From: an uncultured beta proteobacterium
GTDB taxonomy: Bacteria > Pseudomonadota > Gammaproteobacteria > Burkholderiales > SG8-41
Direction of reading: 5' to 3'
Assembly: GCA_963699525.1 (NCBI GenBank)
Contig: CAVOUI010000012.1
Location: forward strand, 47,839-111,838
Length of the DNA stretch: 64,000 bases
The position numbers and the translations under genes were made by a program. Below are positions 1 to 60,346 of this stretch, in pieces. Below the pieces are notes generated by a model that saw only the letters and a program-made list of their open reading frames with translations, made no database searches and was not told the DNA's origin. Positions within the stretch are counted from its first letter, which is position 1. Every line of letters starts with the position of its first letter.

Positions 1-655
1 TTCAGCATGAACCCGAATAACCTGGGCCAGCCGTAGAGCCGCACCTTGCGGTCGCTGGTGAGCAGGGGATGGCGGTGAAGGATCACGATCGTCCGCCGCT
101 CGCGCCGTGCCATGCGCTTCAGGCGCCTGAAGAGGTCGAGCTCCTCGCTGGCGTAGAGCGCCTCGCTGAAGCCGCCCGCCGTGCGGAAGGCCGCCGCCTC
201 GCAAAATATGAAGGACCCCGCTGCCCACCGCATGATCCTGCTCAGCGCGTTCCAGCAGTCCAATCGCCAGCGCGACGCCGCGAGGCGGGTTCGCGTAGAC
301 AACGGTGCTGCCCCCGGCCAGACAGCGCCCGGCGGCAATGGCGTCGGCCGCTTCGGAAAAAAGCTCCACTGTCGGGTGGGAATCGGCGTCCACGAAGAAG
401 ATCCAGTCCCCGCCGGCCTCCGGCGGCGCCCGGATTGCGCGCGCGGCTGATCTGGTTCACCGGCTCGAAGACGACGCGCGCTCCCGCCGCCCGGGCGATC
501 GCCGCCGTCCCGTCGGTGGAATTGTTGTCGCAGACGATCAACTCGGACGCCCAGCCGCGCCGGTCGAACGCTTCCATGGCCGCGCGGATGCTGCGGAGCG
601 ACCCGGGCAGCAATCGCTCCTCGTTGAATGCGGGAACGACGACGGAGATCTTCAT
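1..655 (-). pseudogene. Glycosyltransferase family 2 (runs off the window start); the reading frame changes twice (~300 and ~430), so two frameshifts or indel errors
   Basis: N-terminus MKISVVVPAFNEERLL...CDNNSTDGT in the 242-655 frame; GDWIFFVDADSHPT in a second frame; FIFCEAAAFRTAGGFSEALYASEELDLFRRLKR in a third (hand translation of the reverse complement). Confidence 0.7.
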
Positions 656-670
656 CTGGCTGACCTGGAA

Positions 671-846
671 GGACGCGGCCGCAAGGTCAGACCCCCATTG
701 ATAAGGTAGTGGCAGCCCGCCGCGGACTCGAACCGCGAACCTTCCGCTTCAGAGGCGGACGCTCTACCAATTGCGCTAGCGGGCAGCAGATTTGCCGGAC
801 TGGGGTCCGATCTCATTCGACCGTGCGCCGTCGTGGGAAGTTCGAA
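671..846. repeat. Direct repeat copy 1 (~176 bp, ~90% identical to 10551-10725); contains tRNA-Gln plus its 5' leader and 3' trailer
   Basis: Aligned by eye: ggac(g/c)cggccgc..ggtcagaccccc...tRNA...gggcagcag(a/g)tttgccggac..gtcgtgggaagttcgaa. Confidence 0.8.
710..785 (-). tRNA. tRNA-Gln (anticodon CTG)
   Basis: Cloverleaf folded by hand: anticodon stem TCCGC/GCGGA, loop CTCTGAA, T-arm CGCGG-TTCGAGT-CCGCG, 3' CCA encoded; the 1:72 position is a T-T mismatch. Confidence 0.8.
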
Positions 847-876
847 ACCGCGACGGGCAGACCGTGGATCACTCGC

Positions 877-2256
877 TTACTCCAGAGGCTTGAGATCGGC
901 GAGCAGGGTGGGGATCAGCTCGGTGACGGTCGGATGTATGTGCACCGCGTTCTGGATGACCGTATAGGGAGCGCCCGCATACATCACGTCGAGAATCGAG
1001 TGAATGGCCTCATCGGCTTCGATGCCGAGAAGCGCCGCGCCCAGGATCAGCCGGGTCTGCGCGTCGACCACTATCTTCATGAAACCCTGAGTCTCTCCGC
1101 GCTCCCGCGCGCGGCCGACCCGGCTCATCATCATCTTGCCCACCAGCGCCTTGCGGCCCGAGGCCCTCACTTCGCGTTCCGTCATGCCGGCCCGGCCCAG
1201 CGGCGGGTCGATGTAGAGCGCGTAGGCGGGGATGCGGTCGGTCACGCGGCGATGGCCGCCATCGAGCAGGTTGGCGGCGACGATTTCGTAGTCGTTGTAC
1301 GAGGTGTGCGTGAAGGCCCCCCGGCCATTGGCATCCCCGAGCGCCCAGATTCCAGGCACGTTGGTGCGCAGCTCGTCGTCCACCACGATGTAGCCGCGCG
1401 CATCGGTCTTCACGCCGGCCTTCTCGAGCCCGAGGTCGTCGGTGTTCGGCACGCGGCCCACGGCCAGCAGCAGATGCGAGCCCGTGACCTGGGGCGGTCC
1501 GCCTTCGCAGCTCAGGCCCGCCGCGACGCCGTTTCCGCGCTTCGCCACCGTGATGCACTTTGCGTTGAGCCTGATCTCGACGCCTTCGCCCTCCAGGATC
1601 TTCTGGATCGCCGCCGAGACTTCCTCGTCTTCGCGCGCGATCAGCCGCGGTCCCATCTCCACGACCGTCACCCGGCTGCCGAAGCGGCGATACATCTGGG
1701 CGAATTCCAGCCCGATATAGCTGCCGCCGATGACGACGAGGTGCTCGGGCAGGAAATCGATCTCCATCATGCTGGAATTGGTCAGATAGCTGACTTCGGT
1801 GATTCCGGGCATGTCGGGCACGGACGCCCGCCCACCGACGTTGAGAAAGATCTCTGCTCGCCTCCAGCAGTCTCCCGTTGACGCGGACAGTGCGGGGGCC
1901 CTCGAGCCGCGCATGCCCTTCGAGCACCGCGAGGTTGGGCGTATTCCTGAGCCACTTGGTCACGCCCTCGTTGGATTGCCGCACGACGGCGTCCTTGCGG
2001 GCCTTCACGCGCGTCATGTCCACGCTAATGCGCCCGTCGATCGCGACCCCGTATTCGGCGCCGGGCGCGCCACGTGCGCCGCGCGGGCGCTCGCGATCAG
2101 GGTCTTGGTCGGGATGCAGCCGACGTTGACGCAGGTCCCGCCGAAGAGCTTGCGCTCGATGATGGCCGTTTTGCGGCCCGCATTCGCGAGCCGGACCGCG
2201 AGCGAGGGACCGGATTGGCCGGTGCCGATGACGATTGCGTCGTACTTTTCGGACAT
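877..2256 (-). pseudogene. FAD/NAD(P)-dependent pyridine nucleotide-disulfide oxidoreductase (mercuric reductase / dihydrolipoamide dehydrogenase-like), split over three frames
   Basis: N-terminus [11 protein letters not shown] and [13 protein letters not shown] (2014-2256); middle in the 1010-2023 frame; C-terminus VVIGGSYIGLEFA...HIHPTVTELIP in the 877-1914 frame. Confidence 0.7.
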
Positions 2257-2323
2257 GCCATGCCTCCCACCGCAGCGGGGAACCTTAGTGGTCTGGCCCC
2301 TTTAGCTTATCCTCACGCGCTCG

Positions 2324-2698
2324 TCATTTCCGAAACAGCAACTCGCGCGCTTTTTCGTAAATCGCATCGATCCCAAGCTTTTTTTCCGTCACGTCATCCG
2401 CTTCCCAGCGATCCGGGCTGATCCAATATTGGGATTTCAGCAGGCACCGGTTTGCCAGATCCCGGTCGAATCGGCGAACGGGCACGGCGGCCTTGCTCCA
2501 CAATCGGGCAAGTTCCTCCTCATGTTTGCGCTTTCGCCGTCCAGTCTTTTCGAGTCGTGCGAGGTAAATCTTGGTCTCATTGGCGGCCGCATAGATGGCC
2601 GCGAGCGCCGCATCCATCAGATCATCGCGACGGTGGCGCTCGCTCGAAAAGTAGTCGAGCAGTTTCCCCAGCCCGGGGATTGCCTCAAGCATTGTCAT
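2324..2698 (-). CDS. Hypothetical protein (124 aa)
   Basis: ORF with a protein-like composition; no family recognised. Confidence 0.4.
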   Translation of the reverse strand: MTMLEAIPGLGKLLDYFSSERHRRDDLMDAALAAIYAAANETKIYLARLEKTGRRKRKHEEELARLWSKAAVPVRRFDRDLANRCLLKSQYWISPDRWEADDVTEKKLGIDAIYEKARELLFRK

Positions 2699-2728
2699 CG
2701 CCGTTACCCATCGGACCGTTTCCGCGAA

Positions 2729-5626: not shown

Positions 5627-7897
5627 TCACTCGAGAACACCGAGGGTGACGATGCTTTGCGGACTATTGCCCGCGGCGAACGGGCTATTCGCGATCGCCG
5701 TTAACGCACCGGTGGCCGGGTTGATCGCATAGGCGGAAATGCTGTTGTTGTTGATACCGGAATTCGCGGCATAGGCGAACCTACCGCTGAAGTCCACGGT
5801 TACCGATCGCGGTTCCAGGCCTGCGGCGAAGGGGCTAGGCAGCGTCAGCGCACCGGTGGCGGCGTTGATCCCGTAGGCGGAGATGCTGTTGGAGCCGTTG
5901 TTCGCCACGTAGACAAACCGTCCGGCCGGGTCGACCGTCACCGACCAGGGCGTCAAGCCCGCGGCGAATGGGCTTCCGGTAATCAGGGTCAGTGCACCCG
6001 TGACGGAGTCGATCGAATACGCCGATACGCCGGAGCCACCGCTGATGTGCGTCACGTAGACGAAGCGCCCGTTTGGGTCCACCGTCACCGACCGAGGGCC
6101 CTGGCCTGTCAGGATTGTGCCTATCGGCGTGAGAGTGCCCGGATTGAGGATCACACCCGTATCAATCCGGTAGGCCGAAACGCTGTTGCCCTGAAAATTC
6201 GCCACGTACACGAACCGCCCGCTCGGGTCCACCGTTACGGAAACGGGGTCGTTCCCAGCGGCATATGGGCTGGCCAGGCCGGCGAGGACCCCGTTATTCG
6301 GGTCGATCGAGTAGGCGGAGACGCTATCGGAGCCAAGATTCGCTACGTAGAGGAACCGCCCGCTCGGGTCGACGGCGACGGACTGGGGCCCGGACACAGC
6401 GGCAACCCCGCCGGAGAACGGGCTTCCCGGCACCGGCGTCAGGGCCCCTGTGCCGGGGTTGATCGCGTAGCCCGAGAGATTGTTGGAACCGGCGTTAGCG
6501 GCGTAGACAAATCTTCCCATCGGATCGGCGGCGACCGATAGCGGCGTGTCCTCCGTGAGGCTGTTGCCGGCCGGCGCCAGAGCGCCCGTGGACGCGTTGA
6601 TCGTATACGCGGAAACCGAGTTGCCCACGCTGTTCGCCGCATAGGCGAATCTGGGCCGGAAGACGAGCGGCGCCGTTCCCTTGCTCACGGCGACGGATCT
6701 CGGAGCCGACTGGGCACTGACGGTTGCGGAACTCGCGAGTGGCGTGAGCGCGCCGGTCGCGTTGTTCAGCCGATACATGGAGACGTCGTTCGAGGCGACA
6801 TTCGTCACGTATACAAACTGACTGCTCGGATCGACGGCAACTGAGCGGGGGCTGCTGCCCGCCGGGAACGGACTTCCACCGACCGGCATCAGCACCCCGC
6901 TGGCCGCGTCGATCGTGAAGGCGGAAACCGTTCCGGAGACCTCATTCGTCGCGTACACAAATTGCCCGCCCGCGTCCACGGCAACGCTGCTGACACCGCT
7001 GCCGGCAAGAAACGGGCTTCCGGCCACGGGCGTCAGCGCCCCGGTGGCCGCGTCGATCCGGTATACGGATACGTTGTTTGAGGCGCCATTTGCCGCCACG
7101 ACGAACCGCCCGCCCGGCTCGACCAGGACCGACTGGAGACCCGATTCAGCGGCAAACGGGCTGCCGGGCACCGGCGTCAGAGCACCGGTGCTGGTGTTGA
7201 TCGAATACGCCAAGATCTTTTTGTCGAGGAGATTGCTGGCCGCCACGTAGGCGAATCGGCCGCCCGGATCCACGGCCACGGAGAGGGGATTGGTGCCCGT
7301 CATGAACGGGCTCCCCGGCGCCGGAGTCAACGCGCCGGTGGCCGCGTTGATCGTGTAGCCGGAGATCGTGTCGGAAAGCTGGTTCACCGCATAAGCAACG
7401 CGCCCTGCCGCATCCACGGCCACGGATATCGGGCTATTGCCTGCAGCGAATGGGCTGCCCGCAACGGCAGTCAGCGCCCCGCTCGTGGGGTTGATCGTGT
7501 AGGCCGCGACGGCGCCCGCGTTGACATTGCTTGCCACAAAGACAAACCGGGCGTCGGCGTCCATCGCGACGGACGCGGCTCCCGGGATACCCGCGACGTA
7601 GCCGCGTGGCCGCAACTGGCCGGTGGCGGCGTCGACGGCGAAGATGGAGACTGAACTTTCCTGACCGTTGGCCACGTAGGCAAAGCGCGGCGCAGTTACC
7701 GTGGCTGGCGGCGGCATTCCACCGCCACCGCCACCGCCACCGCCTCCACCACCGCACGCAGCGAGGGCGATGGAAACCAGGAGCAGCGATGTCTTGAGAA
7801 ATCGGTGTTTCAATCCGTTCGCGATCCCGGATTGCCCCGGCGGATCGTCGAGGGCAGGGCAGTACGAAATCGCGGCTGAGTTTTTCGGTTCCATCAT
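5627..7897 (-). CDS. Lipoprotein with ~14 YVTN/lactonase-type beta-propeller repeats (two predicted 7-bladed propellers); the likely true start is TTG at 7813
   Basis: Repeats of the form YVAN..SN.VS.Y.ID..TGALTPV.GSPF.AG..P.SVAVDPSGRF.Y; lipobox LLLVSIALAAC followed by a G12 linker. Confidence 0.8.
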   Translation of the reverse strand: MMEPKNSAAISYCPALDDPPGQSGIANGLKHRFLKTSLLLVSIALAACGGGGGGGGGGGGMPPPATVTAPRFAYVANGQESSVSIFAVDAATGQLRPRGYVAGIPGAASVAMDADARFVFVASNVNAGAVAAYTINPTSGALTAVAGSPFAAGNSPISVAVDAAGRVAYAVNQLSDTISGYTINAATGALTPAPGSPFMTGTNPLSVAVDPGGRFAYVAASNLLDKKILAYSINTSTGALTPVPGSPFAAESGLQSVLVEPGGRFVVAANGASNNVSVYRIDAATGALTPVAGSPFLAGSGVSSVAVDAGGQFVYATNEVSGTVSAFTIDAASGVLMPVGGSPFPAGSSPRSVAVDPSSQFVYVTNVASNDVSMYRLNNATGALTPLASSATVSAQSAPRSVAVSKGTAPLVFRPRFAYAANSVGNSVSAYTINASTGALAPAGNSLTEDTPLSVAADPMGRFVYAANAGSNNLSGYAINPGTGALTPVPGSPFSGGVAAVSGPQSVAVDPSGRFLYVANLGSDSVSAYSIDPNNGVLAGLASPYAAGNDPVSVTVDPSGRFVYVANFQGNSVSAYRIDTGVILNPGTLTPIGTILTGQGPRSVTVDPNGRFVYVTHISGGSGVSAYSIDSVTGALTLITGSPFAAGLTPWSVTVDPAGRFVYVANNGSNSISAYGINAATGALTLPSPFAAGLEPRSVTVDFSGRFAYAANSGINNNSISAYAINPATGALTAIANSPFAAGNSPQSIVTLGVLE
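7705..7757. repeat. (CCACCG)n/(GGN)n hexanucleotide simple-sequence repeat encoding the poly-Gly linker of the propeller lipoprotein
   Basis: ccaccgccaccgccaccgccaccgcctccaccaccg. Confidence 0.8.
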
Positions 7898-8255: not shown

Positions 8256-9350
8256 ATGCGGGTGGTCGTACTAGGCGGCTACGGAAACTTCGGGGCTCGA
8301 ATCTGCCGGGAGCTCGCCGGAGATTCAGGGATCGAGGTCATTTCGGCTGGCCGCAACCCACTTGCGATCCCTTCCGGAGCAAACATCCGGACTGCGCGGC
8401 TCGATCTCGCGTCTAGTGATTTTCCCGCAGCGCTTCGATCGCTGTATCCGGACCTGGTCATGCATTGCGCCGGCCCGTTTCAGGGCCAGGATTATCGAGT
8501 AGCCGCGGCGGCGCTCGCGGCGGGCGCGCACTACATTGATCTCGCGGACGGCCGCGCCTTCGTTGCCGCGTTTGCAGGGCAGCTGGATGCTGTCGCACGG
8601 GCGGCAGGGCGATTGGCGATCACCGGGGCGAGCACCTTGCCCGGGCTCTCGTCCGCGGTTGTGGACCACCTTGCGCAGCGCTTCCAGAAAATAGACGAAA
8701 TCCAGATCTCGATTGCGCCTGGCCAGAAGGCGCCGCGCGGGACCGCCACGATCGCGGGAGTTCTGAGCTACGCCGGCAAGCCGTTCAAGCGACTGCGCCT
8801 CGGACGCTGGTCGGATGCGTGGGGCTGGCAGGGGCTGAAGCGCATCCGGTTCGCCGGCGTGGGGATGCGTCTTGCAGCCGCGTGCGACGTGCCCGACCTT
8901 GAGCTCTTTCCGCGGCGCTATCCGGGCGTGCGCACGGTCGAGTTTCGCGCGGCGCTGGAACTCAGCGTCCAGACGATGGGTATCGCGCTGATGGCTTCGC
9001 TGCGGCGAGCGGGATTGCCGTTGCCGCTCGAGCGATGGGCCGGCTTTGTGAACCGCGCGGCTTCGCTTCTTGACCGGTTTGGCACGGACCGTGGCGGAAT
9101 GCTTGTGTCCGTGAGCGGTATGCGCCTCGACGGACGCCGGGGAAGCGCCGAATGGCACATTACTGCCGGGAACAATCACGGCCCGGAGATACCGTGCATG
9201 GCGGCGATCCTCATGGCGCGTAAACTCGCGAGCGGGGAGATCACCATGAGCGGCGCGCATCCCTGCATGGGGTTCCTCGGCCTCGCCGACTTCGAGCCCG
9301 AGTTTGCGCGCTGGGGCATGACGACCGTCATCGAGGAGCATCCGGCTTGA
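8256..9350 (+). CDS. Saccharopine dehydrogenase-like NAD(P)-binding protein
   Basis: Rossmann MRVVVLGGYGNFG; ATG at 8256 inside the longer ORF 8175-9350. Confidence 0.8.
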   Translation: MRVVVLGGYGNFGARICRELAGDSGIEVISAGRNPLAIPSGANIRTARLDLASSDFPAALRSLYPDLVMHCAGPFQGQDYRVAAAALAAGAHYIDLADGRAFVAAFAGQLDAVARAAGRLAITGASTLPGLSSAVVDHLAQRFQKIDEIQISIAPGQKAPRGTATIAGVLSYAGKPFKRLRLGRWSDAWGWQGLKRIRFAGVGMRLAAACDVPDLELFPRRYPGVRTVEFRAALELSVQTMGIALMASLRRAGLPLPLERWAGFVNRAASLLDRFGTDRGGMLVSVSGMRLDGRRGSAEWHITAGNNHGPEIPCMAAILMARKLASGEITMSGAHPCMGFLGLADFEPEFARWGMTTVIEEHPA

Positions 9351-9456
9351 GCGGCGTCTTGCGTTCTGGAAGACGGCGCATGTCCTGAGCGCGGCGATCC
9401 TGTTCGGCACCGGGATCGGCATCGCATTCTTCTGCTGGTTCGGGTTCCGGCGCGCG

Positions 9457-9840
9457 TTGCGGACCGGCGACATCGCGGGGCTGCGCCTCATGCTGCGGCT
9501 GACCGTGCTGGCTGACGCCTGGTTTACTGCGCCAGCCGTCGTCTTTCAGGCGGCCAGCGGTCTGGTCCTAATGATTCTCCTCGGCTGGCCGCTGGCGAGC
9601 CCATGGTCCATCGCTGTTTGGTCGTTGTTCATATTCACGGGCGCCTGCTGGTTACCGGTGATCGTCATGCAGGTCTGGCTGAGCCGCGAGGCCGACCGTG
9701 CGCCCTCCATCGAAGCACTGCCTGCGCGATTTCACCAGTGGTTTCGCCTGTGGTTTGTGCTGGGGATTCCGGCGTTCACGGCGGTGGTGCTGCTTTTCTA
9801 TTTGATGATCGCGAAGCCGTTTGCCATAACGCTTGCGTGA
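9457..9840 (+). CDS. DUF2269-family membrane protein; homology and the open frame extend upstream to ~9352 with no start codon
   Basis: TM helices; the upstream in-frame KTAHVLSAAILFGTGIGIAFF matches the family N-terminus but no ATG/GTG/TTG is present. Confidence 0.55.
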   Translation: MRTGDIAGLRLMLRLTVLADAWFTAPAVVFQAASGLVLMILLGWPLASPWSIAVWSLFIFTGACWLPVIVMQVWLSREADRAPSIEALPARFHQWFRLWFVLGIPAFTAVVLLFYLMIAKPFAITLA

Positions 9841-10550: not shown

Positions 10551-10725
10551 GGACCCGGCCGCGGGGTCAGACCCCCTTGATGCGGTAGTGGCAGCCCGCC
10601 GCGGACTCGAACCGCGAACCTTCCGCTTCAGAGGCGGACGCTCTACCAATTGCGCTAGCGGGCAGCAGGTTTGCCGGACCGGGGTCCGGTCTCGTTCGAC
10701 CGTGCGCTGTCGTGGGAAGTTCGAA
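10551..10725. repeat. Direct repeat copy 2 (tRNA-Gln plus leader and trailer)
   Basis: ~90% identical to 671-846. Confidence 0.8.
10589..10664 (-). tRNA. tRNA-Gln (anticodon CTG), second copy
   Basis: Identical to the 710-785 gene. Confidence 0.8.
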
Positions 10726-10733: not shown

Positions 10734-10795
10734 GCAAAAAAAAATTAAAATGGAAAAGAACGTGAAAACAAAACGACGTAGGTCGAAAGCATGAC
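10734..10795. other. AT-rich ~60-bp filler joining repeat copy 2 to the truncated TctC gene
   Basis: gccggcaaaaaaaaattaaaatggaaaagaacgtgaaaacaaaacgacg sits in a 68% GC background. Confidence 0.6.
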
Positions 10796-11389
10796 CTGGA
10801 GATCGCCCGATACCAGGTCGATGAGCGCCGGGCCGCCGCCCTTGTAGGGCACGTGCGTCATGCGAATGCCGGCGAGCCGCTGGAAGTTCACCCCCGCGAG
10901 GTGATCGAGCTGGCCGGGCCCGGAGCTGCCGAAGCGCGTCTCATCCGTGCGCTTCTTCGCCCACTCGATGAATTGCCTCGGGTCGCGCACACCGATCGCA
11001 GGATTGACCACCATCACGTTGATGATCTCCGCCGCGCGCGTGATCGGCAGGAAATCGCGCTCCGCGTCGTACGGGAGCTTCTTGTAGAGCCACTGGCTGA
11101 TCGCGAGCGGGCCCACGCCGCCCACCAGCAGCGTGTAGCCGTCGGGCTCGGCCTTGGCGAGGAGATCCGTCGCCAGGCGCCCGGCGGCGCCCGGGCGGTT
11201 GTCGATGACGATCGTCTGGTGGAGCTGCGCGGCGAGCGGCTCGGCGACGGTGCGCCCGATGGTGTCGGCGGCCCCGGCCGCCGGGAACGGAATGAGGATG
11301 CGGATCGGGCGCACCGGGTAGCTCTGCTGCGCCCATGCCGGTGCCATCGCGATGGACAGCAGGACAGCGGTCCATGTTGCTTTCTTCAT
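10745..11389 (-). pseudogene. tctC: TctC-family substrate-binding protein, 3'-truncated at ~residue 200; the reading runs into the AT-rich filler
   Basis: Normal N-terminal ~200 aa; the C-terminus LSTYVVLFSRSFPF is read-through of the filler, and ~120 aa are missing. Confidence 0.7.
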
Positions 11390-17789: not shown

Positions 17790-18313
17790 CGCGAGCCCGC
17801 CGGCGCGACGAGCTGGCGGGCGACCTCATCCACGTGGCGCAGCGTGAGCGCCCGGACTTCCTCCGGCTTGAGGTTGCTGATCGGGTGCGGCAGCGCGACG
17901 AACGGGTGCCCGGCCATGCCCCGGCCGCGGAACTGGAACTCGGCCGCCTTGAGGAAGGCGGTCGTGATGACGACGGTGGCGGGAATGCCGCGTTTCTCGA
18001 ACTCGATGGTGTCGTGCACACTGCACAACGTGCACGAGCCTCACCCGCCGAGCGCCGCGACGGCGACTTGCGCCTCCTTTGCCATTTCATCGATCAGGGC
18101 ATCCGGTGCGGGCTTCGAGTAGTGGTCCTTCCGCCGCAGGATGACGCGCGCAGCGCCGTAGCGCTCGCGCAGCGCGGCGCCGATCGTCTCGAGAATGATG
18201 TCGCCCTGCTCCTTGGTGTTGTCGAGCAGCGCCACGACCTTGCCCGCGAGGCTGGCGGGGCGCGGCGCGGCTGCGATTGCGCGGACGCCGCTGCCGGCGC
18301 TGGGGTCGATCAA
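17786..18313 (-). CDS. Candidate UGSC-family selenoprotein with an in-frame TGA (Sec) at 18041-18043 and a SECIS-like hairpin
   Basis: ORF 18041-18313 ends ...AVAALGG-TGA and continues in the same frame as GSCTLCSVHDTIEF (ORF 17786-18028), giving GG-U-GSC; an 8-bp hairpin UCGUGCAC-N10-GUGCACGA begins 5 nt after the UGA. Confidence 0.6.
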
Positions 18314-18371
18314 ATCCGGATCCTTCGCTCATGGTGTGTCCTTTCGTGTGGAGATCGGGTTCAATGGAATG

Positions 18372-19410
18372 TCACGTCGAATACGCGCGGCTCACCGCGC
18401 GGCTCGCGACCGTGATGCCGTGCATTACCAGGCTGCTCGGCGATCCGGAGCCGCCGGCGACGATCAGGTGCAGGTCGCCGGCATCGCCGACCGCGGGAAC
18501 GAACGCGCCGTCGTCGTTGAGGTTGACCTCGAAGGGCCAGCGCTTTGCGCCGGAAGCGCCGCGCCAGATGCCGCCGCGCCGGATTTCGCCCAGGCGCCGG
18601 CCGGCGCGCTCGATCAGCAGCTTGTGGACGGCGTCGCGCGACAGCCCGGCATCGGCGAATACCTGTGCATGCTGCGGGCTCAGCACCACCGCCATGTCCG
18701 CCTGGCGGTAGATGTTGCCGCCGCCGAGGGCGGACATCATGTCGGCGATCGCGACGACCAGGCGCTCCGGCTGTCTCGCTGGCGTCGTCCCATACCAGAA
18801 CCGGGCCCTCGAGCGGAATCGCGGTCACGACGTTTTCCCCGGGCCCGAACCCGTGCGCGCTCGCGTACGACGGCCACGGGCTCTCGGCTTCGTTCTCGGC
18901 GACGCAGTAGGTATAGCGCCACGGCCCGCCGAATCCGCTCAACGCCGTGATCCCGGGAATGCCGCCGCCGAGATTCATCATCATGAGGCGCAGCGCGCGG
19001 CCGATGGTTGCGTTTGCCCGGAAGCCGGGCCCGAAGCAGCCGACGCCGCCATGCAGCCCGATTTCCGCGGCGTACGGCCCGTTGACGAGGACGAAAGGCG
19101 CGCCCGCGCTCGTCGTCGCCTGCAGCAGGAGCAGATTGAAGCGTTCCTCGAGCACGCATTCCATGGCGCCGATCACCACCGGCAGGTAGGCGGGCATGCA
19201 GCCCGCCATCACGGCGTGCAGCGCGATCGCGCGCACCGTGGCCGGCGCCATGAGCGGCGGCACGTCGCCGATCGATTCGTCGGGATCGCGCGACGTCGCG
19301 GCCAGCATGGCGGCGAGCCGCTCTTCGGTGGGCGGGACGACCGGCAGGCCGTCCGACCATTCCTTGTCGAAGAAATTCTCGATGGCTTTTTCGGTTTCGT
19401 TCATCGCCAT
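18372..19410 (-). pseudogene. Conserved hypothetical protein (~345 aa) with a frameshift near 18750
   Basis: The N-terminal 200 aa are protein-like in the 18361-19410 frame; the C-terminal 120 aa continue in the 18372-18740 frame. Confidence 0.5.
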
Positions 19411-22040: not shown

Positions 22041-24223
22041 CTAGAGGCGGATCGGCAGCGAGCGCACCCGCTTGCCGGTGGCGGCGAAGACTGCGTTCGC
22101 GACCGCGGGCGCGATGACCGGCGTCGCGGGCTCGCCCACGCCGCTCGGCTTCTCGCTCGAGGCCACGATGTGCACGTCGACCCGCGGCATCTCGTTCATG
22201 CGCAGCGGCGCGTAATCGTGAAAGTTCGACTGCTCGACTACGCCGTCCTTGAGCGTGATCGCGCCGTGCAGCGCCGCCGTCAGCCCGTAGGCAATGCCGC
22301 TTTCCATCTGGGCGCGGATCACCGAGGGATTCACCGCCACGCCGCAGTCGACGGCGCACACCACGCGGTTAACCTGGAGCGCCCCGTCGCGCACCGTCAC
22401 CTCGGCGACCTGCGCAACGAATGTGTTGAACGATTCGTGAACGGCGATGCCCCGGCCCCGCTGCGCGCCCGCTGCCTGCGCGAGCGGCTTGCCCCAACCG
22501 GCCCTCTGCGCGGCGAGCTCCAGCACGCCCTTGTGGCGCGAGGTGCTTGGCGAGCAGCGTGCGGCGCAGCTCGTAGGGGTCCTTGCCGGTGGCCGCGGCG
22601 ATCTCGTCCAGGAATGTTTCGGTCGAGAACGCGGTGTGGGTCGAGCCCACCGAGCGCCACCACTGGACCGGGACGCCCATTTTCGGCGAATGCAGCTCGA
22701 CGCTCAGATTGGGAATGCCGTAGGGGAGGGTGCTCGCGCCTTCGACCGAAGTGGCGTCGATGCCGTTCTTGACCATCGCGCTCTCGAACGCGGTGCCGGC
22801 GAGGATGGATTGCCCGACGATGCGGTGATGCCAGGCGATGATCCGGCCCTGCGCGTCGAGCCCCGCCTTGAGCACGTGGTAATTCAGAGGGCGGTAGTAG
22901 CCCGCCTGCATGTCGTCCTCGCGCGTCCACACCAGCTTCACCGGCGCGCGGCCGTTGATCGCCTTCGCGATCGCCGCGGCCTCGACGAGGTAATCCGAGC
23001 GCGGATTGGCCCGGCGGCCGAAGCTGCCGCCCGCGTAGAGCATGTTCAGGCTCACCTGCTCGGGCTTCAGCCCCACCACGCTCGCGACTGCTACCTGATC
23101 CCCGGTCTGCATTTGCTCGCCGTTCCAGACTTCGCACGCGTTCGCGCCGAGCTTCACCACGCAGTTCATCGGCTCCATCGCCGCATGCGCGAGGTAGGGG
23201 AATTCGTAGGCCGCCTCCAGAGTCTTCGCCGCGCCGGCGAGCGCGCGATTGACGTCGCCATCCCTGCGCGCGGAGAGCCCCAGTGTTGCCGCGCGCTTGC
23301 GGTACTCGGCCAGGATCTCGGCCGAGCCGAGCTTGAACGCGCCCGTCTCGTCCCATCGCGATCAGTAGCGCGTCGCGGCCGGACTTGGCCGTCCAGAAGT
23401 CTCCCGCCAGCACCGCCACCCCCTGAGGGATTGCCACCACGTCGGTCACGCCCTTGACCGCCTTTGCCTTCGCGGCGTCGAAGGACTTCACCCGCGCGCC
23501 GAAGCGCGGCGGATGCGCGACGACCGCGGTCAGCATCCCGGGAAGCTTCACGTCCTGCGTGAAGATCGCGGTGCCGGTGGACTTCGCGCGGCTGTCCGGG
23601 CGCGGCACCCGCTTGCCGATATAGACGAAGCTCTTCGGGTCCTTCAGCTTCACCTCGGCCGGCACCAGCTGCTTCGCGGCGTCCGCGGCGAGCTGCCCGA
23701 AGCTCGCCTTGCGCCCGGAGGCCTTGTGCAGCACCGTGCCGCGGCTCACCGTGATCGAGCCGGGCTCGACCCTCCAGCGCTGCGCGGCGGCGGCAACCAG
23801 CATCGCGCGCGCGGTGGCGCCCGCCTTGCGCAGCTGCTCCCAGGAATTCGCGATCGCGGTGCTGCCGCCCGTGCCCTGCGCCGGTCCCCAGAACAGGTTG
23901 TTGTAGCGGCTCGCGTCGGCCGGCGCCGGCTGGACGATGACCTGGCCCCAGTCGGCATCGAGCTCCTCGGCGACGAGCGTGGGCAGCCCGGTGTAGGTGC
24001 CCTGGCCCATCTCCAGGTGCTTGACCACGACGGTCACCCGGCTGTCCGTTCCGATGCGGACGAAGGCGTTTGGTTCGAACGCGCCGGCGGCGACAGCCTT
24101 GCCGCCCGCCCGGCCGGGTCCCGCCTGGGCAAATACCGACGGTGCCGCGAGGCCGAGCGTGAGGCCGGCGCCGGCCTTGAGGAAATCGCGCCGGCTCAGG
24201 TTGACGATGCCGAGAGTGTCCAT
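22041..24223 (-). pseudogene. Molybdopterin-binding subunit of an IorB/aldehyde-oxidase-type xanthine dehydrogenase family enzyme with a Tat signal; broken into at least three frames
   Basis: Start MDTLGIVNLSRRDFLKAGAGL at 24223 with an AGGAGGA Shine-Dalgarno; pieces in ORFs 22397-24625, 22369-23178 and 22041-22526. Confidence 0.7.
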
Positions 24224-37216: not shown

Positions 37217-37475
37217 GTTCGATCTCCATAAGGTGAGTGAGGAAATTCGGCGGCATGCGACGCATGCGGCCTCTGCGTCTCCGGGTATCCGGCAGGGGGT
37301 TCGATACCGTCCTCGGCGCGGCGTTCAGTCCAGAATGGAAGGGCGATATTACTCCAGGATAAAAGCGGAGGGAGCGGGACGGAATGGGACCCCTGCAACT
37401 CGCGCCCCCGCGGGCGGCCGGAATGGTAATCTGTCTCCCCGCTCACGCGGTTTGCCGTCCTCAAGGAGGATTCTC

Positions 37476-37847: not shown

Positions 37848-38955
37848 ATGGCATCAACGGATCGTTTGCGCGTGGGGTTGATCGGGGCGGGCGGACGCTG
37901 GGGCCCGTGGGCGCACGTTCCGGCGCTGACGCAGCTGCCGGAGACCGAGCTTTTTGCCGTGTGCACCGCGCACGCGGACACCGCGCAGGCGGCGGCCGAC
38001 AAGTATGGCGTGAAGCGCGCCTATAGCGACGTCAGCAAGATGAGCGCCGACCCGCAGGTGGAGGCTGCGCTCGTCGCCGTGCGCGTGCCGGCGCACCTCG
38101 CTCTCACGAAGGCCGCTCTCGACGCGGGCAAGCATGTCTACTGCGAGTGGCCGCTCGGCGCGAACACGAAGGAGGCCGAGGACATGGCGGCGCTCGCGCG
38201 CCGGAAGAACCTGCGCACGATGGTCGGCCTGCAGCGGCGCGCATCGCCCGCGTACCTCTACATGCGCGAGCTCATCAAGGACGGATACGTCGGCGAGATG
38301 CTGTCGGTCAACATGACGATGATGAACAGCGGTGTGCTGACGCGCACCTCGGACCGCACGTGGCAGCGCGACGCAAAGCTCGGCGCAAATCCCCTGACCA
38401 TCACGTTCGGGCACGCGATCGACGCCGTGTGCATGGTCGCGGGGGAGCTCACGGAAGTCTCGGCCGTCGTCAGCACCCAGGCCAAGCAGTGGTTCGAGAC
38501 CGACACGAAGAAATACCGTCGACACCACCGCGCCCGACAACATCCTGATCCAGGGCCGGCTCGAAAACGGGGCCGTCATCAGCGCGAACGTGGGCGTCCA
38601 GCCCTATCACGGCAGCGGCTACCGGTTCGAGATCTACGGGAAAACGGGCACGCTCATGATGATCGGCGGCGGGGAAGCCGGGCAGGAGGCGAACCGCAGG
38701 ATCGTCGGCGGCCACAAGGACGACAAGGAGCTGAAGGAGCTGCCGGTGCCGGACCGGCTCAAGTGGGTGCCGGAAGCGGTGCGGAAGGAGGGCCGTGCCT
38801 ACGACGTCGGCCAGATGTGGGTCAATTTTTCAAAAGCGATCCGCACCGGCAAGGGCGTCGAACCCGACTTCGACCACGCGGTGCGCCGCCACCGGATGCT
38901 CGATGCTATCGTGCGCGCGTCCGAGACGGGGCAGCGGCAGAAGGTCGTGCTCTAG
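37848..38955 (+). pseudogene. Gfo/Idh/MocA-family oxidoreductase, frameshift at ~38515
   Basis: N-terminus VGLIGAGGRWG...EWPL; the C-terminus continues in the 38590-38955 frame; consistent with a 2-nt loss in aagaag. Confidence 0.65.
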
Positions 38956-45543: not shown

Positions 45544-46434
45544 TTACCGGTCAAGGTTGCGGGTGACGTCGTCGAAGAGTTCATCCACCTTGAAGCGTCT
45601 CGGAATGAGGCGCTGCTGGTGGACGTAGTCGATCGCGACTTCGAGGTTGCGCCGGTTCGCTTCCAGGCCGAAGGGCGTCATGTCGAGCTCGCCCGGGGCG
45701 GGCGCCGGCGCGCGGCGCTTGGCTTCGCGCAGCAGCCGGTAGACTTCGCGCACGGCGTCCGGGTCGGATTGCGACAGCGTTTGCCGGACGACCACCATGT
45801 GGTTGATCTGGATCGCGCGGTTCTTCACGTGCCACTCGTGCGCCGCCTTGTCCGGATCGGGAATGAGCCGCTTCAGACGCGGATCCTCGAGCTTGGTGTC
45901 CCGCATCACCGCGGCATCCACTTCGCCGTCGAGCAGCATCTTGAGGAGCTCTTTACCCTCAGACGCGCGCTCGACCGTCGGCGGGTCCTTGAATTCCGCC
46001 ACGTGCGGCTCCTCGAACGTCACCCAGCGCACGGAGTCGATGTTCACTCCGAAATCGTTGGCGAGGATGCCGCGCAGCCACATGCTGGTCGTAACCGAGT
46101 AGGAGCGGATTCCGACGCGCCGCCCGTTCAGGTCCCGCGGTCGCAGCTCGCCGCGTGCCGAGTTGTAGACGAGGAACGGGTGCTGGAACCGGCCGAGCAC
46201 CACTGCCGGCAGCAGCACGTACGGCTTCCCGTGCGCCTTCGCCATCAGGTAGGTGACAATCGCAAGCTCCGAGACGTCGAACTCGAGATTGCGGACGGTG
46301 CGCTTGAACGCGCTCGCGACCTGCGGGACGTCGGCGAAATCGAAGGCGACGCGAGCCAAGGTCAGCTCGCCCCGCCGCAGCGCGCGCGTGGTGGGGTAAT
46401 CCCCCAGCAGTGTTTTCAGTAGTCTCAAGCCCAT
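45544..46434 (-). CDS. NMT1/THI5-like (SsuA/TauA-fold) protein without a signal peptide
   Basis: 296 aa; periplasmic-binding-protein type II fold signature. Confidence 0.55.
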   Translation of the reverse strand: MGLRLLKTLLGDYPTTRALRRGELTLARVAFDFADVPQVASAFKRTVRNLEFDVSELAIVTYLMAKAHGKPYVLLPAVVLGRFQHPFLVYNSARGELRPRDLNGRRVGIRSYSVTTSMWLRGILANDFGVNIDSVRWVTFEEPHVAEFKDPPTVERASEGKELLKMLLDGEVDAAVMRDTKLEDPRLKRLIPDPDKAAHEWHVKNRAIQINHMVVVRQTLSQSDPDAVREVYRLLREAKRRAPAPAPGELDMTPFGLEANRRNLEVAIDYVHQQRLIPRRFKVDELFDDVTRNLDR

Positions 46435-46443
46435 CGGCTCTAG

Positions 46444-47407
46444 TCACTGGGGCGGGATGCCCGCCGTCTTGATCACCTTCGCCCACTTGGCGATTTCTGC
46501 TTCGAGATAACCGGCGAACTCGTCCGCGCCGCCTTGCGCGGGCTCGATCCCCAGGGCGAGCAGCCGCTCCTTCAGGTCCGGGGCCGCCAGCGCCTTCACG
46601 CTCTCGTCGCTCAATCGGATGATAACCGGCCGCGGCGCCGCCGCCGGCGCGAGCATCCCGTACCACGAGGTCGCATCGTAGCCGGGGAGCCCGGCTTCGG
46701 CCAGCGTCGGCACCTCGGGGAGGACCGCGCTGCGGCGCGTTCCCGAGACGGCGATCGCGCGCAAATCGTCCCTGCTGGAGCTGGGCCATCACGGCGGCAG
46801 GCGAACTGAACATCAGCGGCGCTTCGCCAGTCATGACCCCGATCAAGGCCTGGGAGCTGCCCTTGTACGGCACGTGGACCAGGTCCACTTTCGTCATCGA
46901 GACGAACAGCGCCATCCCGAGGTGCGTCATGCTGCCGACTCCCGCGCTGCCGTAGTTGAGCATTCCCGGGTTGCGCCGGGCGAGCGCGATCAGCTCCCTG
47001 GCCGATTTCATCGGCAGGGAAGGATGAGCGACCATGACCAGCGGGCCGTATCCCACCAGCGTTACGGCCGCGAGGTCCTTGCGCACGTCGAAACCGAGCT
47101 TGGCGAAGAGGGACGGCATCGCGACGGTCGCGTTTGCGAAGAGCAGCGTGTAGCCGTCGGGCGCGCTGCGGGCGACGGACTCGGAGGCCAGCGTGCTCGC
47201 CGCGCCGGGCCGGTTTTCGACGACGACCTGCTGCCCGAGCGGCCCCGAGAGCTTCTGCGCGAGCGCCCGGGCGGAGATGTCGGTCGCCCCGCCGGCGGTG
47301 AAGCCGACCACGAGGCGGACGGTGCGTGCCGGGTACGGCTGCGCGGCGCTCCCGCCGGAAAGGAGCAGGCTTCCCGCAAACGCGAGAGGTACCGCGACCG
47401 GCTTCAT
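46444..47407 (-). pseudogene. tctC: TctC-family substrate-binding protein, frameshift at ~46770
   Basis: N-terminal 210 aa in ORF 45959-47776; the C-terminus in ORF 46444-46764. Confidence 0.7.
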
Positions 47408-47505
47408 GTCCGCACCCGCCATAGGGAAGTACCCGCCTTGTAGGACGGGGATATTACCGGAACGGGCGCAGGTGACGAACCCGCGGATTCTGAAGGCGGA
47501 GTGAT

Positions 47506-52200: not shown

Positions 52201-52295
52201 TTTCGTGAGCGGCAGTATCGCGGGAGACGGCCGGCGGGTGTTGATCGTGCGTCCGGCATTTTTGCGCGGGACTCCGGACTTCCGGATCGCGCGGC
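52201..52295. promoter_or_regulatory. Repeated intergenic element, copy A (TCCGG inverted repeats), upstream of the methyltransferase
   Basis: ~85% identical to 54785-54872; GTCCGGC-N15-ACTCCGGACTTCCGGAT. Confidence 0.5.
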
Positions 52296-54784: not shown

Positions 54785-54872
54785 TTTTCGGGAACGGCAG
54801 TATTGCGGAGTCCGGGTGACGCGAGTTGATCGAGCGTCCGGCGTTTTTGCGCGTGACCCCGGACTTCCGGAT
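54785..54872. promoter_or_regulatory. Repeated intergenic element, copy B, in the divergent FAD-oxidase/AraC intergenic region
   Basis: See copy A. Confidence 0.5.
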
Positions 54873-55872: not shown

Positions 55873-56776
55873 CTACTTTCGTAACCGATACCACGGATGC
55901 GGCTGCCCCGGCAGCTTGACTCGCAGGGTGTAGACCGAGGTATACGCGCAGCAGAAGAGCGTCCGCAGGTCCGGGCCGCCGAACGCAAAGTTCACCGCCT
56001 GCTCGGGGAAGCGGATGATCCCGATGCGCTTTCCGCCGGGGGTGAAGACCCAGATGCCGCCCGGCCCGGTGCAGTAGACGCGCCCCTGCGAGTCGACCTT
56101 CAGCCCGTCGGGGATGCCGCGCTCCGTGCCCTCGTTCATGTCGGCGAAGATGCGCCGGCCCGTCATGGTTGCCCGCGGCGTCGAGCTCGATTGCGTGGAT
56201 GTATTTCGAGGAGCGGGTATTGGCGACGTAGAGCGTGCGCTCGTCCGGCGAGAACGCGAGGCCGTTCGGATACTCGCAGTGCGCCGCGACACTCACGGCG
56301 CCATCGGGCGCGACGCGATAGACGCAGGCGCCGTCCCAGAGATTGTCGATGCCGGCCGGGCCGGGTATTTCCCGCTCGGCGTAGGGCACGCGCTTGTCCG
56401 GGTCGGTGAAATAGAGGCTGCCGTCGGAGCGGCACACCACGTCGTTCGGGCGGTTGAAGCGCCCGCCCTGGTAGCGATCGGCCACGATGACGACCTTGCC
56501 GTCGGGTCCGGTGCGCGTGACCTTGCGGCCGTCGCCCTCGCACACGATGAGGTTGCCCTTCAGGTCGAACGTGGTGCCGTTGCCCCCCTCCGTTTTGCGG
56601 ACGAGGTCGGGTGCTTGCCCGGGGCGGATCCGGTGCAGGTGATTGCGCCGGAGATCCACGAAGTACCAGTAGCCGTCCGGGTGCCACAGCGGCCCTTCCG
56701 TGAAAATGAACCCCGTCGCGAGGCGCTCGGCTTCGACGGTCTCCAGGACATCGGGAAGATAGTTCGCGGCAGACAT
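55873..56776 (-). pseudogene. SMP-30/gluconolactonase/LRE-family protein, frameshift at ~56160
   Basis: N-terminal 200 aa in ORF 55787-56776; the C-terminus is in the 55873-56292 frame. Confidence 0.65.
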
Positions 56777-58676: not shown

Positions 58677-58704
58677 TAGGGATCGGTACGGGGAGCACGA
58701 CGCC

Positions 58705-58815
58705 ATGCAGAAAATCACGCCTTTCCTGTGGTTCGACAGCCAGGCGGAAGAGGCCGTGAACTTCTATGTCTCGATCTTCAAGAATTCGAAGATTGCTGCA
58801 AATGTCCAGGATTGA
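58705..58815 (+). pseudogene. N-terminal 36-aa fragment of a PhnB/VOC-like protein (truncated)
   Basis: [21 protein letters not shown] followed by an early stop. Confidence 0.4.
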
Positions 58816-58872
58816 CATTGGTGCCCTGCAGCGGGCGCTCGCCGGCAATTGAATCAGAAAAAGAGAGGGCCC

Positions 58873-59412
58873 ATGCTCAAGATTCTCGGTATCGCCGTCG
58901 CCATCGCCGTTGCCATCGCCGTTGCCAGCGTGCTCCTGTACGCCGCAAACAAGCCCGATGCCTTCCGTGTCGAGCGCGAGACGAGCATCCAGGCGCCGCC
59001 GGAAAGGGTCTTTCCGCTCATCAATGACCTGCGCGCATTCAACGCGTGGAATCCCTTCGAGAAGAAGGATCCGAACCTCAAGGGGCATTACAGCGGCCCC
59101 TCAAGCGGTCGCGGCGCGGCGTATGCTTTCGATGGAAACAAGGACGTGGGCAAGGGCAGCATCGAGATCCTGGAGTCTTCGCCTCCATCGAAGGTCACGA
59201 TGAGGCTCGCCATGGTCGAGCCGTTCAAGGTCCGGAATACGGTCGAATTCACGCTCGTTCCCGCCGGCGGCGCGACCCACGTGACTTGGGCCATGCAGGG
59301 ACCGGCGCCGTTCATCGCGAAAGTCATCCACATGTTCATCGACATGGACCGGATGATCGGCAAGGACTTCGAAGCCGGCCTCGCCAGCCTCAAGGCGATG
59401 GCCGAGAAGTAG
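58873..59412 (+). CDS. SRPBCC-family protein with an N-terminal TM anchor
   Basis: AGAGAGGG Shine-Dalgarno before the ATG at 58873. Confidence 0.65.
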   Translation: MLKILGIAVAIAVAIAVASVLLYAANKPDAFRVERETSIQAPPERVFPLINDLRAFNAWNPFEKKDPNLKGHYSGPSSGRGAAYAFDGNKDVGKGSIEILESSPPSKVTMRLAMVEPFKVRNTVEFTLVPAGGATHVTWAMQGPAPFIAKVIHMFIDMDRMIGKDFEAGLASLKAMAEK

Positions 59413-59443
59413 TTGTCCCGAATTTCACGTCAGGAGAGCGCAG

Positions 59444-59905
59444 ATGTCCAAGGTCAATCCGGTCCCCGACGGGATGCACACCGTCACGCCGCACCTGGTT
59501 TGCGCCGGCGCGGCCGACGCGATCGAGTTCTACAAGAAAGCGTTCAACGCCGTGGAGGAAGGACGATTGCCCGGTCCGCAGGGGCGGATCATGCACGCGA
59601 TGATCCGCATCGAGGGCTCGGCCGTGATGCTGGTCGACGAAATGCCCGAGTGGGGCGCGCTCGGCCCGAAGTCCCTCAAGGGCTCGCCGGTCACGATCCA
59701 CCTCTACGTCGAGGATGTGGACGCGTTCGTCAAGCGCGCGGTCGCCGCGGGGGCGAAGGTCACGATGCCGGTGGCGGACCAGTTCTGGGGCGACCGTTAC
59801 GGGAAGCTCGAGGACCCGTTCGGCCACCACTGGTCCGTCGCTACTCACCTGCGCGACGTGACCGAGCAAGAGATGCAGCAGGCCATGAAGAAGATGGGCG
59901 GCTGA
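59444..59905 (+). CDS. VOC family (PhnB-like) protein
   Basis: 153 aa. Confidence 0.75.
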   Translation: MSKVNPVPDGMHTVTPHLVCAGAADAIEFYKKAFNAVEEGRLPGPQGRIMHAMIRIEGSAVMLVDEMPEWGALGPKSLKGSPVTIHLYVEDVDAFVKRAVAAGAKVTMPVADQFWGDRYGKLEDPFGHHWSVATHLRDVTEQEMQQAMKKMGG

Positions 59906-59922
59906 ACGGACGGGAGAACGGA

Positions 59923-60346
59923 ATGAAGTACTTGTGCCTGATTTGCGCCGAGAAGGTGATGGAGCAGATGACCGAAGCCGACGCCGAGCGGCATTTCGAG
60001 GAGTATCGGACCTTTCATCGCGGACATCCGGGCGAGCGGCCACTACCTCGGGTGCAACCGGCTGCTGCCGCCCGACAGCGCGACCACGATTCGCGTGCGC
60101 CAGGGCAAGGTTGCGATCACCGACGGACCCTGGGTCGAGACCAAGGAGCAGCTCGGCGGCTATTTCCTGATCGAGGCGCGGGATCTCGACGAGGCGATTA
60201 AAGTAGCGGCGCGGATACCGGGCGCCTGGATCGGCTGCGTGGAGGTGCGACCGGTTGCGGAGGATGCACGGACGCTCGAAGTCCTCGGGCTTCCCGGCGG
60301 AAGCGCGGCGGCGCGCGCTGGGATAGCTGCGGAGAAACGCAGGTAA
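59923..60346 (+). pseudogene. YciI-like protein with a +1 frameshift at 60016
   Basis: Removing c at 60016 restores ...EEYRTFIADIRASGHYLGCNRLL...[14 protein letters not shown]. Confidence 0.65.

Follow-up and report, generated by a model that had tools for sequence, protein, structure and literature searches.

Is the high number of interrupted genes in a region of an uncultured soil Burkholderiales genome a record of gene decay, or a product of the way in which its sequence was obtained? In the window, the whole 64,000-nt stretch of DNA analysed here, the original prediction had described at least 11 genes disrupted by small indels, proposing gene decay or systematic assembly error as the cause. 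Megablast of positions 1-25000 against plasmids gave only distant matches of ~72%, and the region therefore corresponds to no known replicon. Frame changes were mapped with a GC3/stop-codon Viterbi frame map and fragment translations, together with tblastn of orthologous ORFs against the window, in which adjacent HSPs in differing frames mark a frame change. The GTDB species representatives, the best at 88% protein identity (PBP gene), served to locate frame changes but not for base-level calls, which were made from nucleotide alignments to ~97%-identical contigs. The frame map, tblastn, the nucleotide alignments and the Pfam matches of the repaired genes all support the predicted disruption. 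In each of the 11 genes the frame is broken by a 1-nt indel, whereas the paralogous neighbours are intact, as the prediction had also stated. Two to three further disrupted genes, absent from that prediction, were found (a UGSC-family 96-aa gene, two YciI genes fused into one and a 276-aa gene hit at its start). The total is ~21 indels, all of 1 nt, across ~13-15 of roughly 68 genes (~1 per 3 kb of the window), with ~19 one-base insertions vs. 2 one-base deletions.

The conspecific references are 13 short-read contigs (L081-L093), recruited through cluster members of intact neighbour genes from JGI 3300014324 and four other JGI samples, ENA ERZ27241186/188, ERZ1761205 and Logan runs. They share ~96-98% nt identity with the window in most aligned segments, locally down to ~91%, and at ~3% divergence represent a different strain. 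The two GT2 sites, TctC 46764 and DUF2269 rest on more distant relatives or protein logic, with no conspecific contig for TctC. The lesions are as follows.

255, minus strand: GT2 glycosyltransferase (gene 1-655, extending beyond the window), +1 insertion of G between A and C
421, minus strand: GT2 glycosyltransferase, second lesion, +1 insertion of C beside a single C
1858, minus strand: pyridine-nucleotide disulphide oxidoreductase (PNDR; 877-2256), +1 insertion, L092 alignment
2064..2065, minus strand: PNDR oxidoreductase, second lesion, 1-nt deletion with the gene-strand A missing, L092 and L093 concordant
9347..9840, plus strand: DUF2269 gene, probable 1-nt deletion at ~9361 (TTGGCG to TTGCG), start out of frame
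18317, minus strand: UGSC-family 96-aa gene (18041-18332), +1 insertion after codon 5
18775, minus strand: 345-aa protein of unassigned function (18372-19410), +1 insertion, base absent in L081 and L082
22540, minus strand: molybdenum hydroxylase large subunit (22041-24223), +1 insertion, base absent in L081, L083 and L086
23356, minus strand: molybdenum hydroxylase large subunit, second lesion, +1 insertion, base absent in L081 and L086
25257, plus strand: CMD-like gene (24801-25431), +1 insertion of A
26687, plus strand: 276-aa gene, +1 insertion in codon 3, L086 alignment
38514, plus strand: GFO/IDH/MocA oxidoreductase (37848-38955), +1 insertion of T inside AAAA
46763..46765, minus strand: TctC (46444-47422), +1 insertion, with TT to TTT on the gene strand as the simplest reading
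48547, minus strand: CxxCH-Vgb_lyase protein (48292 to ~49530), +1 insertion, L090 alignment
49294, minus strand: CxxCH-Vgb_lyase protein, second lesion, +1 insertion, from alignment, repair and Pfam
56171, minus strand: SMP-30/gluconolactonase (55873-56776), +1 insertion of G, L091 alignment
60015, plus strand: YciI (59923-60346), +1 insertion, TT to TTT
62179..62184, plus strand: tandem YciI genes in a fused ORF (61837-62583), +1 at 62179 and a further +1 at 62184

The two frame changes predicted in the GT2 gene are seen in its alignment to L001 at 87% nt identity and in the tblastn frames, which pass from -1 to -2 to -3; the repaired protein matches Glycos_transf_2 over residues 4-129. Those predicted in the PNDR oxidoreductase proved to be one insertion and one deletion. 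The gene is intact in L092 with 459 aa, the length of the repaired ORF, in which Pyr_redox_2 spans residues 5-319. DUF2269 indeed has no start codon in frame, as predicted, with the deletion at ~9361 as the probable cause. The TTG at 9347 that serves as start shares bases with the TGA stop before it, and the lesion lies five codons downstream of this TTG. The relatives L094-L098 read V/L-x-x-x-L/M-A-F-W-K-T in a single frame, and the Pfam match covers model positions 4-150 of 150. A metagenome scan with the saccharopine-dehydrogenase neighbour returned relatives at only 88-89% protein identity, and this lesion is thus one that we infer: comparison with relatives of 88% protein identity suggests that the start was probably lost through a 1-nt deletion.

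The UGSC gene is intact in L081, from whose alignment its lesion was called and then repaired. The 345-aa gene, predicted as a frame-changed 349-aa DUF protein, is likewise intact in L081 and has 345 aa after repair. The molybdenum hydroxylase large subunit is disrupted as proposed, but by two real lesions (22540 and 23356) rather than three or more; both the intact MoCoBD gene of L081 and the repaired ORF have 726 aa. An indel pair at 22378/22386 was rejected as a lesion, being an in-frame divergent patch (VVEGRLK vs. VRDGALQ), as was a deletion at 24230, a natural intergenic polymorphism common to the window and L081. The CMD-like gene is intact in L081 (209 aa) and L086 (207 aa), and its tblastn frames in the window pass from 3 to 1. 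The MocA lesion was called from the L086 alignment and tblastn against L004, and the repaired 368-aa protein matches the Pfam models of both the N-terminal and the C-terminal domain. The predicted disruption of these two genes stands, but not the 2-nt loss ascribed to each, since the alignments place a +1 insertion at 25257 (L081 and L086) and at 38514 (L086). The lesion in the 276-aa gene is mild, and an alternative ATG at 26699 is still usable.

More than 60 homologues of TctC align in frame -1 and then -2 with the junction at 46763-46788, in agreement with the single TctC frame change predicted, and the repaired protein matches model positions 2-273 of 274. The only true truncation, that of a TctC at 10745-11389, belongs to a structural event of its own adjoining a tRNA-Gln repeat. 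The CxxCH-Vgb_lyase gene, predicted as a cytochrome c-Vgb fusion with two frame changes, carries both (48547 and 49294) and is intact in L090 (410 aa). The frame change expected in the SMP-30 protein was located at 56171; the SGL gene is intact in L091 (300 aa), and the deposited record holds a 329-aa SMP-30 product (P0149) with an out-of-frame C-terminal tail. The 1-nt insertion predicted near 60016 in one YciI was placed at 60015, where L091 has an intact 140-aa YCII gene and tblastn against L061 passes from frame 1 to frame 2. The insertion at 62179 removes a YciI stop, so that two tandem YciI genes are read as one 248-aa ORF; L091 keeps them separate as 117 aa and 129 aa.

Every comparable gene is intact in the conspecific short-read contigs. 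All of the ~15 indel sites compared are private to the window, with no lesion common to any of the 13 contigs, and in overlaps of two or three contigs the contigs are concordant and the window alone differs. Three-way alignments show no surplus of substitutions private to the window (40 vs. 42 and 63), but three private gaps, all coding, vs. 0 and 1, the latter intergenic. Pairwise alignment between short-read contigs (39 kb, of which 3.7 kb has 97% identity and 3.75 kb has 96.5%) showed only intergenic indels and no coding frameshift, vs. ~15 coding 1-nt indels in the window. The control is of modest size, as ~4 coding frameshifts are expected at the window's rate and the probability of observing none is ~0.01. 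It is scarcely credible that the fault lies with the short-read contigs, or that they sample another gene pool, the window being correct and the indels ordinary strain variation. The contigs do come from other samples and are ~3% different. However, they derive from at least three independent projects and assemblers and are mutually concordant; their gene versions, unlike those of the window, are full-length with end-to-end Pfam matches, and 1-nt coding indels are never seen among them.

Undoing one base per site rendered 11 of 11 repaired genes full-length with no internal stop. Single contiguous Pfam matches cross the lesions in GT2, Pyr_redox_2, GFO_IDH_MocA, TctC, Vgb_lyase, YCII and DUF2269. 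The repaired CMD match is weak (21.5 bits, under the 23-bit cut-off), and the repaired 345-aa protein matched no Pfam family. After repair, the median dN/dS against the conspecific contigs is 0.109 for the broken genes and 0.097 for their intact neighbours, and pooled Nd/Sd is 0.387 and 0.385, respectively. The broken genes are thus under purifying selection as strong as that on their intact neighbours. The orthologue comparison and dN/dS analysis, two checks that the original prediction had asked for, both favour error, with the orthologues intact and dN/dS equal.

These values bear on a real and very recent pseudogenisation, in which a burst of +1 frameshifts caused by a mutator phenotype or an intercalating mutagen inactivated ~20% of the region's genes before further substitutions arose. 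Equal dN/dS in broken and intact genes weighs against it, as do the absence of in-frame stops from 3,124 codons of the repaired broken genes and the absence of nonsense mutations, larger deletions and IS elements inside the affected genes. The indels do exist in the deposited sequence, with fragments annotated as proteins; the genes hit are not obviously essential (accessory oxidoreductases, TctC paralogues and YciI paralogues), and real structural change lies nearby in the truncated TctC and in insertions relative to the conspecific contigs. However, coding and intergenic sequence is struck in proportion to length, as if without selection, the lesions are absent from all related short-read contigs, and a like signature occurs in unrelated Nanopore-only MAGs. 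Natural bacterial indels show a deletion bias and slippage contexts, a pattern opposed by the 19:2 insertion bias at non-repeat sites. The ~3% divergence of the comparison contigs leaves a small probability to a very recent burst in this lineage, and pseudogenisation of this kind is improbable. That the insertions are real, a free-living soil lineage of Burkholderiales having only now undergone a +1 non-slippage burst that knocked out ~1/5 of its accessory genes too quickly for any other change to follow, is very improbable; if true, such a burst would indicate an unusual natural mutator mechanism or mutagen exposure. The lesions, directly observed to be private to the assembly, insertion-biased, homopolymer-independent, reversible by one base and free of any sign of relaxed selection, are with high probability errors left behind in the assembly consensus rather than mutations of the organism itself.

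The sequence context indicates what kind of error this is. None of the 93 homopolymer runs of at least 5 nt in the window is struck. At 9 sites the inserted base stands in a run of one, at 5 sites in a run of two and at 2 sites in a run of three, and 9 insertions duplicate no adjoining base. No shared motif or methylation-like context around the insertions was visible by eye, and no repeat tracts occur at the lesion sites, which avoid homopolymers and simple repeats. The lesions originally placed in G or C runs are a T added to TT in YciI (60015) and, in GT2, a G between A and C (255) and a C beside a single C (421). The slippage and 2-nt-loss mechanisms proposed (G/C run, gtgtg, aagaag) are therefore wrong wherever a site was resolved. 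Slipped-strand phase variation or programmed ribosomal frameshifting, with the frame changes as functional switches or recoding sites, is exceedingly improbable. Two sites do lengthen TT to TTT (46764 and 60015), but repeat tracts are absent at the sites while 93 longer homopolymers are unaffected, and the lesion contexts show no shared slippery motif. Moreover, the orthologues are contiguous at every site, in ~97%-identical and more distant genomes, so the frame change is not conserved. Homopolymer association is the classic signature of Nanopore, HiFi, 454 or Ion Torrent sequencing; tested as a signature of error, it was not found at the lesions. The unstruck homopolymers and non-duplicative insertions point to random rather than systematic error, and the word systematic in the original prediction is not upheld, as dependence on a motif or homopolymer was not seen. 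The lack of a homopolymer signature does not count against error, because the pattern recurs in two Nanopore-only MAG loci (L049 and L064).

Among 80 related loci (1.06 Mb), convincing frameshifts occur only in these two loci, which are of the same clade, and the short-read MAG loci lack the signature. There are three +1 insertions in L049, and a +1 and a -1 in L064, all non-homopolymer as in the window. What looked like frameshifts at the PBP/TPR boundary, and likewise in the short-read loci L034 and L046, was rejected as gene-boundary artefacts produced by the long antisense ORFs of GC-rich DNA. The L049 and L064 MAGs were assembled with Flye and one Medaka round, with no short-read polishing (PMC12313526), and gene-fragmenting indels are known in long-read assemblies (PMC12007338). 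It is very likely that the errors in the window arose in long-read assembly, given the contig of 489,738 bp. The MAG contig would very probably derive from error-prone long reads that received no effective polishing with short reads, and random single-base insertions and a few deletions would have persisted into the consensus at ~1 per 3 kb. With ~90% of the sequence coding, almost any such error breaks a gene; gene callers would then output fragments or proteins whose tails are out of frame, and public protein collections now contain them. Of the two causes originally offered, assembly error is strongly supported. The window almost certainly carries uncorrected, random, insertion-biased consensus errors, and gene decay and slipped-strand mutation are not supported, in view of the private lesions, the insertion bias, the avoidance of homopolymers and simple repeats, the lack of nonsense mutations or larger deletions in these genes and the equal selection.

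The value of this result lies in quality control, not biology. About 1/5 of the genes in the region carry a wrong annotation, as fragments, fusions or proteins with nonsense tails, and public protein collections already contain at least two of the erroneous products (an 80-aa oxidoreductase stub and the 329-aa SMP-30 with its out-of-frame C-terminus). Metabolic reconstruction, pseudogene counts and claims of genome decay drawn from this MAG will be wrong until it is polished, and similar long-read MAGs of the clade may carry the same problem. Since the errors need not occupy homopolymers, homopolymer-aware correction alone would miss them.

Pseudogene-rich reductive genomes, e.g. Mycobacterium leprae, Sodalis and Burkholderia mallei, carry mixed lesions that are shared among strains, with elevated dN/dS. 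The window resembles them in its high fraction of interrupted genes, with paralogues intact, but has neither their mixture of nonsense, deletion and IS lesions nor raised dN/dS or shared lesions. Contingency loci and slipped-strand mispairing share the single-base frame change, but need the homopolymer or short tandem repeat tracts that the window sites lack. The likeness to long-read error (Nanopore/PacBio CLR) consists in 1-nt indels that split ORFs every few kb and are absent from same-species short-read assemblies, in genes otherwise perfectly conserved, in a contig very long for a soil MAG and in lesions of the same kind in Nanopore-only MAG loci of the clade. Published consensus errors of Nanopore and HiFi assemblies are mostly homopolymer-associated, those of Nanopore being mostly deletions (PMC12007338), whereas the window has non-homopolymer insertions, a pattern that better fits a low-coverage or mixed-strain consensus, or noise of the PacBio CLR type.

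The disrupted genes of the window are very probably artefacts of uncorrected consensus errors. Viterbi segmentation based on codon-position G+C and stop codons placed the within-gene frame changes exactly where the original prediction had them, and the translated fragments are in each case successive pieces of one protein. Searches of the window with ORFs from 80 related loci (tblastn) showed that one orthologue matches adjacent segments in differing frames for GT2 (twice), CMD, MocA, TctC and YciI, with more than 60 homologues backing the TctC frame change. The lesions, inserted (+1) or deleted (-1) single bases that break the frame, are as follows.

255 and 421: GT2, +1 each
1858 and 2064: pyridine-nucleotide disulphide oxidoreductase (PNDR), +1 and -1, respectively
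~9361: DUF2269, probable -1
18317: UGSC96, +1
18775: 345-aa protein, +1
22540 and 23356: molybdenum hydroxylase large subunit (MoCoBD), +1 each
25257: CMD, +1
26687: 276-aa gene, +1
38514: MocA, +1
~46764: TctC, +1
48547 and 49294: Vgb, +1 each
56171: SMP-30, +1
60015: YciI, +1
62179 (and 62184): tandem YciI pair, +1; the stop codon is destroyed and the two genes are fused

Two candidate sites near the hydroxylase were rejected. The 22378/22386 pair proved to be a divergent stretch that stays in frame, and 24230 is an intergenic polymorphism common to the window and the conspecific contig L081. The contig alignments therefore leave two frameshifts in the hydroxylase rather than the three or more first counted. 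Base-level alignment likewise showed that the supposed 2-nt losses in CMD and MocA are +1 insertions.

Undoing one base per site yielded full-length ORFs without an internal stop in 11 of 11 repaired genes, and the repaired reading frames contain no in-frame stops. Pfam searches of the repaired proteins supported Glycos_transf_2, Pyr_redox_2/Pyr_redox_dim, GFO_IDH_MocA with its C-terminal domains, Vgb_lyase, DUF2269 and YCII, and the repaired TctC matches positions 2-273 of the 274-position model. The CMD match is below threshold (21.5 bits vs. a cut-off of 23 bits), and the 345-aa protein matched no Pfam family. The Vgb_lyase protein has a CSGCH haem motif at its N terminus; no Pfam match to cytochrome c was found in the repaired protein. 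The names MoCoBD, SGL (the Pfam family of the SMP-30 gene) and UGSC were taken from precomputed Pfam matches on intact orthologues.

The window has a G+C content of 66% and abundant TctC (Bug-family) solute receptors. Exact-sequence look-ups matched ten of its intact proteins in public collections, all on one contig of 489,738 bp present in NCBI and ENA. Its nearest species-level genomes are uncultured soil or sediment Burkholderiales MAGs with at most 88% protein identity (PBP1 gene). Conspecific references were reached through cluster members of intact neighbour genes. They comprise short-read contigs from five JGI metagenomes (L081-L085), MEGAHIT assemblies from ENA (L086, L092 and L093), Logan assemblies (L087-L089), a farmland assembly from ENA (L090) and a further JGI contig (L091). 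These contigs are syntenic with the window, with a DNA identity of ~96-98% across most aligned segments and ~91% locally at the lowest.

Every comparable gene is intact in the conspecific contigs (MoCoBD 726 aa, CMD-like 207-209 aa, the 345-aa protein, UGSC 96 aa, oxidoreductase 459 aa, Vgb_lyase 410 aa, SGL 300 aa and YCII 140 aa). Wherever coverage comes from two or three independent contigs, these support one another and the window stands alone. A three-way alignment of 22399-26063 showed 40 private substitutions in the window vs. 42 and 63 in two short-read contigs, whereas private gap columns numbered three in the window, all coding, vs. none and one, the latter intergenic. Pairwise alignments of the short-read contigs (39 kb) contain no coding frameshift, even for pairs at 97.0% and 96.5% identity, and all their indels are intergenic. 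Between the window and the contigs, intergenic indels have natural mixed lengths of 1-10 nt, whereas coding indels are exclusively single-base. Contiguous orthologues, together with a lack of repeat tracts, contradict programmed frameshifting or phase variation.

The lesions total ~19 insertions vs. 2 deletions, every one a single base. Natural bacterial indels are biased to deletion, opposite to this insertion-rich spectrum. Sequence context was scored for 16 insertions. The inserted base copies no neighbour (run length 1) at nine of them, for example a T within AAAA at 38514; the run length is 2 at five and 3 at two. None of the 93 homopolymers of at least 5 nt in the window carries a lesion. 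Replication slippage does not give such a spectrum.

Relaxed selection in the broken genes was not borne out by dN/dS values (Nei-Gojobori, against the conspecific contigs), which are the same for broken and intact genes. The median dN/dS is 0.109 for the repaired broken genes (pooled Nd/Sd 0.387, 10 comparisons) and 0.097 for the intact genes (pooled Nd/Sd 0.385, 28 comparisons). The original prediction had left gene decay or systematic assembly error as options; assembly error is strongly supported and decay is not, nor is the word systematic, since the errors look random.

Two window proteins from the deposited record are present in public protein collections: P0117 (2017-2256, minus strand), an 80-aa oxidoreductase stub produced by a frameshift, and P0149 (55790-56776, minus strand), a 329-aa SMP-30 protein with an out-of-frame tail. 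Protein databases thus already contain products of assembly errors.

Unlike the 1-nt lesions, the TctC gene at 10745-11389 (minus strand) is a real structural truncation, a remnant covering only model positions 2-160 of 274. At its end lie a run of nine A residues and the second of two 154-nt direct repeat copies (693-846 and 10572-10725, 95% identity), each of which holds a complete tRNA-Gln(CTG). No integrase was found in the 9.9-kb segment between the copies. Homology to L092 stops at ~859, close to the first copy, and L092 has an oxidoreductase followed by a rhomboid gene in place of tRNA-Gln and GT2. Candidate explanations for the bracketed segment are an island, a rearrangement and an assembly join made at a repeat.

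The 3.9-kb segment 31379-35244 holds a slipin/SPFH gene (31428-32573, minus strand) and a tRNA array (32987-34702, minus strand) of 15 genes by ARAGORN and one Rfam-only match. Several of these tRNAs look atypical, including a tRNA-Ser of 73 nt that lacks the long variable arm, the truncated Rfam-only match (32987-33052) and a weak match of 37.6 bits. The segment is missing in the conspecific contigs L086 and L087, where the flanking genes are 28 nt apart, and 36 related loci have no tRNA genes. It has neither flanking repeats nor an integrase, and its matches among phage and plasmid sequences were confined to individual tRNAs or the slipin gene. The segment looks like a lineage-specific tRNA-array insertion.

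Within 36557-37335 the window has a gene for a 1-Cys peroxiredoxin (36563-37216) whose place is taken by ~9 nt in the conspecific L086, a single-gene insertion/deletion polymorphism. The region 46419-47490 with the frameshifted TctC gene (46444-47422) is variable, and in the related contig L090 this position is occupied by 471 nt of unrelated sequence. A 756-aa lipoprotein-like ORF (5627-7897, minus strand) contains a poly-Gly linker and many beta-propeller-like repeat units of ~48-50 aa (VAVDPxGRFxYVAN...), which appear as 144-150-nt DNA repeat families. An 87-nt direct repeat (52201-52287 and 54786-54872, 82% identity, 2.6 kb apart) lies in intergenic or upstream regions, with one copy upstream of the methyltransferase gene and the other between the genes for FAD oxidase and AraC; the two copies may represent a common regulatory element.

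When the 80 related loci (1.06 Mb) were compared all-against-all by tblastn, convincing frameshifts appeared in only two, both from Nanopore-only Microflora Danica MAGs of the same clade as the window; the short-read MAG loci showed none. L049 has insertions (+1) at 679, 18821 and 21453; L064 combines an insertion at 4570 with a deletion (-1) at 4243. All five are single-base changes, and none lies in a homopolymer. A real burst of +1 mutations in the lineage is very improbable: it must be very recent, limited to one-base insertions at non-repeat sites and blind to coding sequence, and must by coincidence equal in kind the errors of unrelated long-read MAGs. The Microflora Danica MAGs come from Flye assemblies given one round of Medaka polishing, with no short reads used, and their authors noted Nanopore-associated errors at lower coverage (PMC12313526). 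Gene-fragmenting indels are documented in long-read assemblies, with a published signature of mostly homopolymer deletions (PMC12007338). The window differs from that signature in its non-homopolymer insertions, whereas it resembles the Nanopore-only MAGs both in error signature and in its long contig (489,738 bp).
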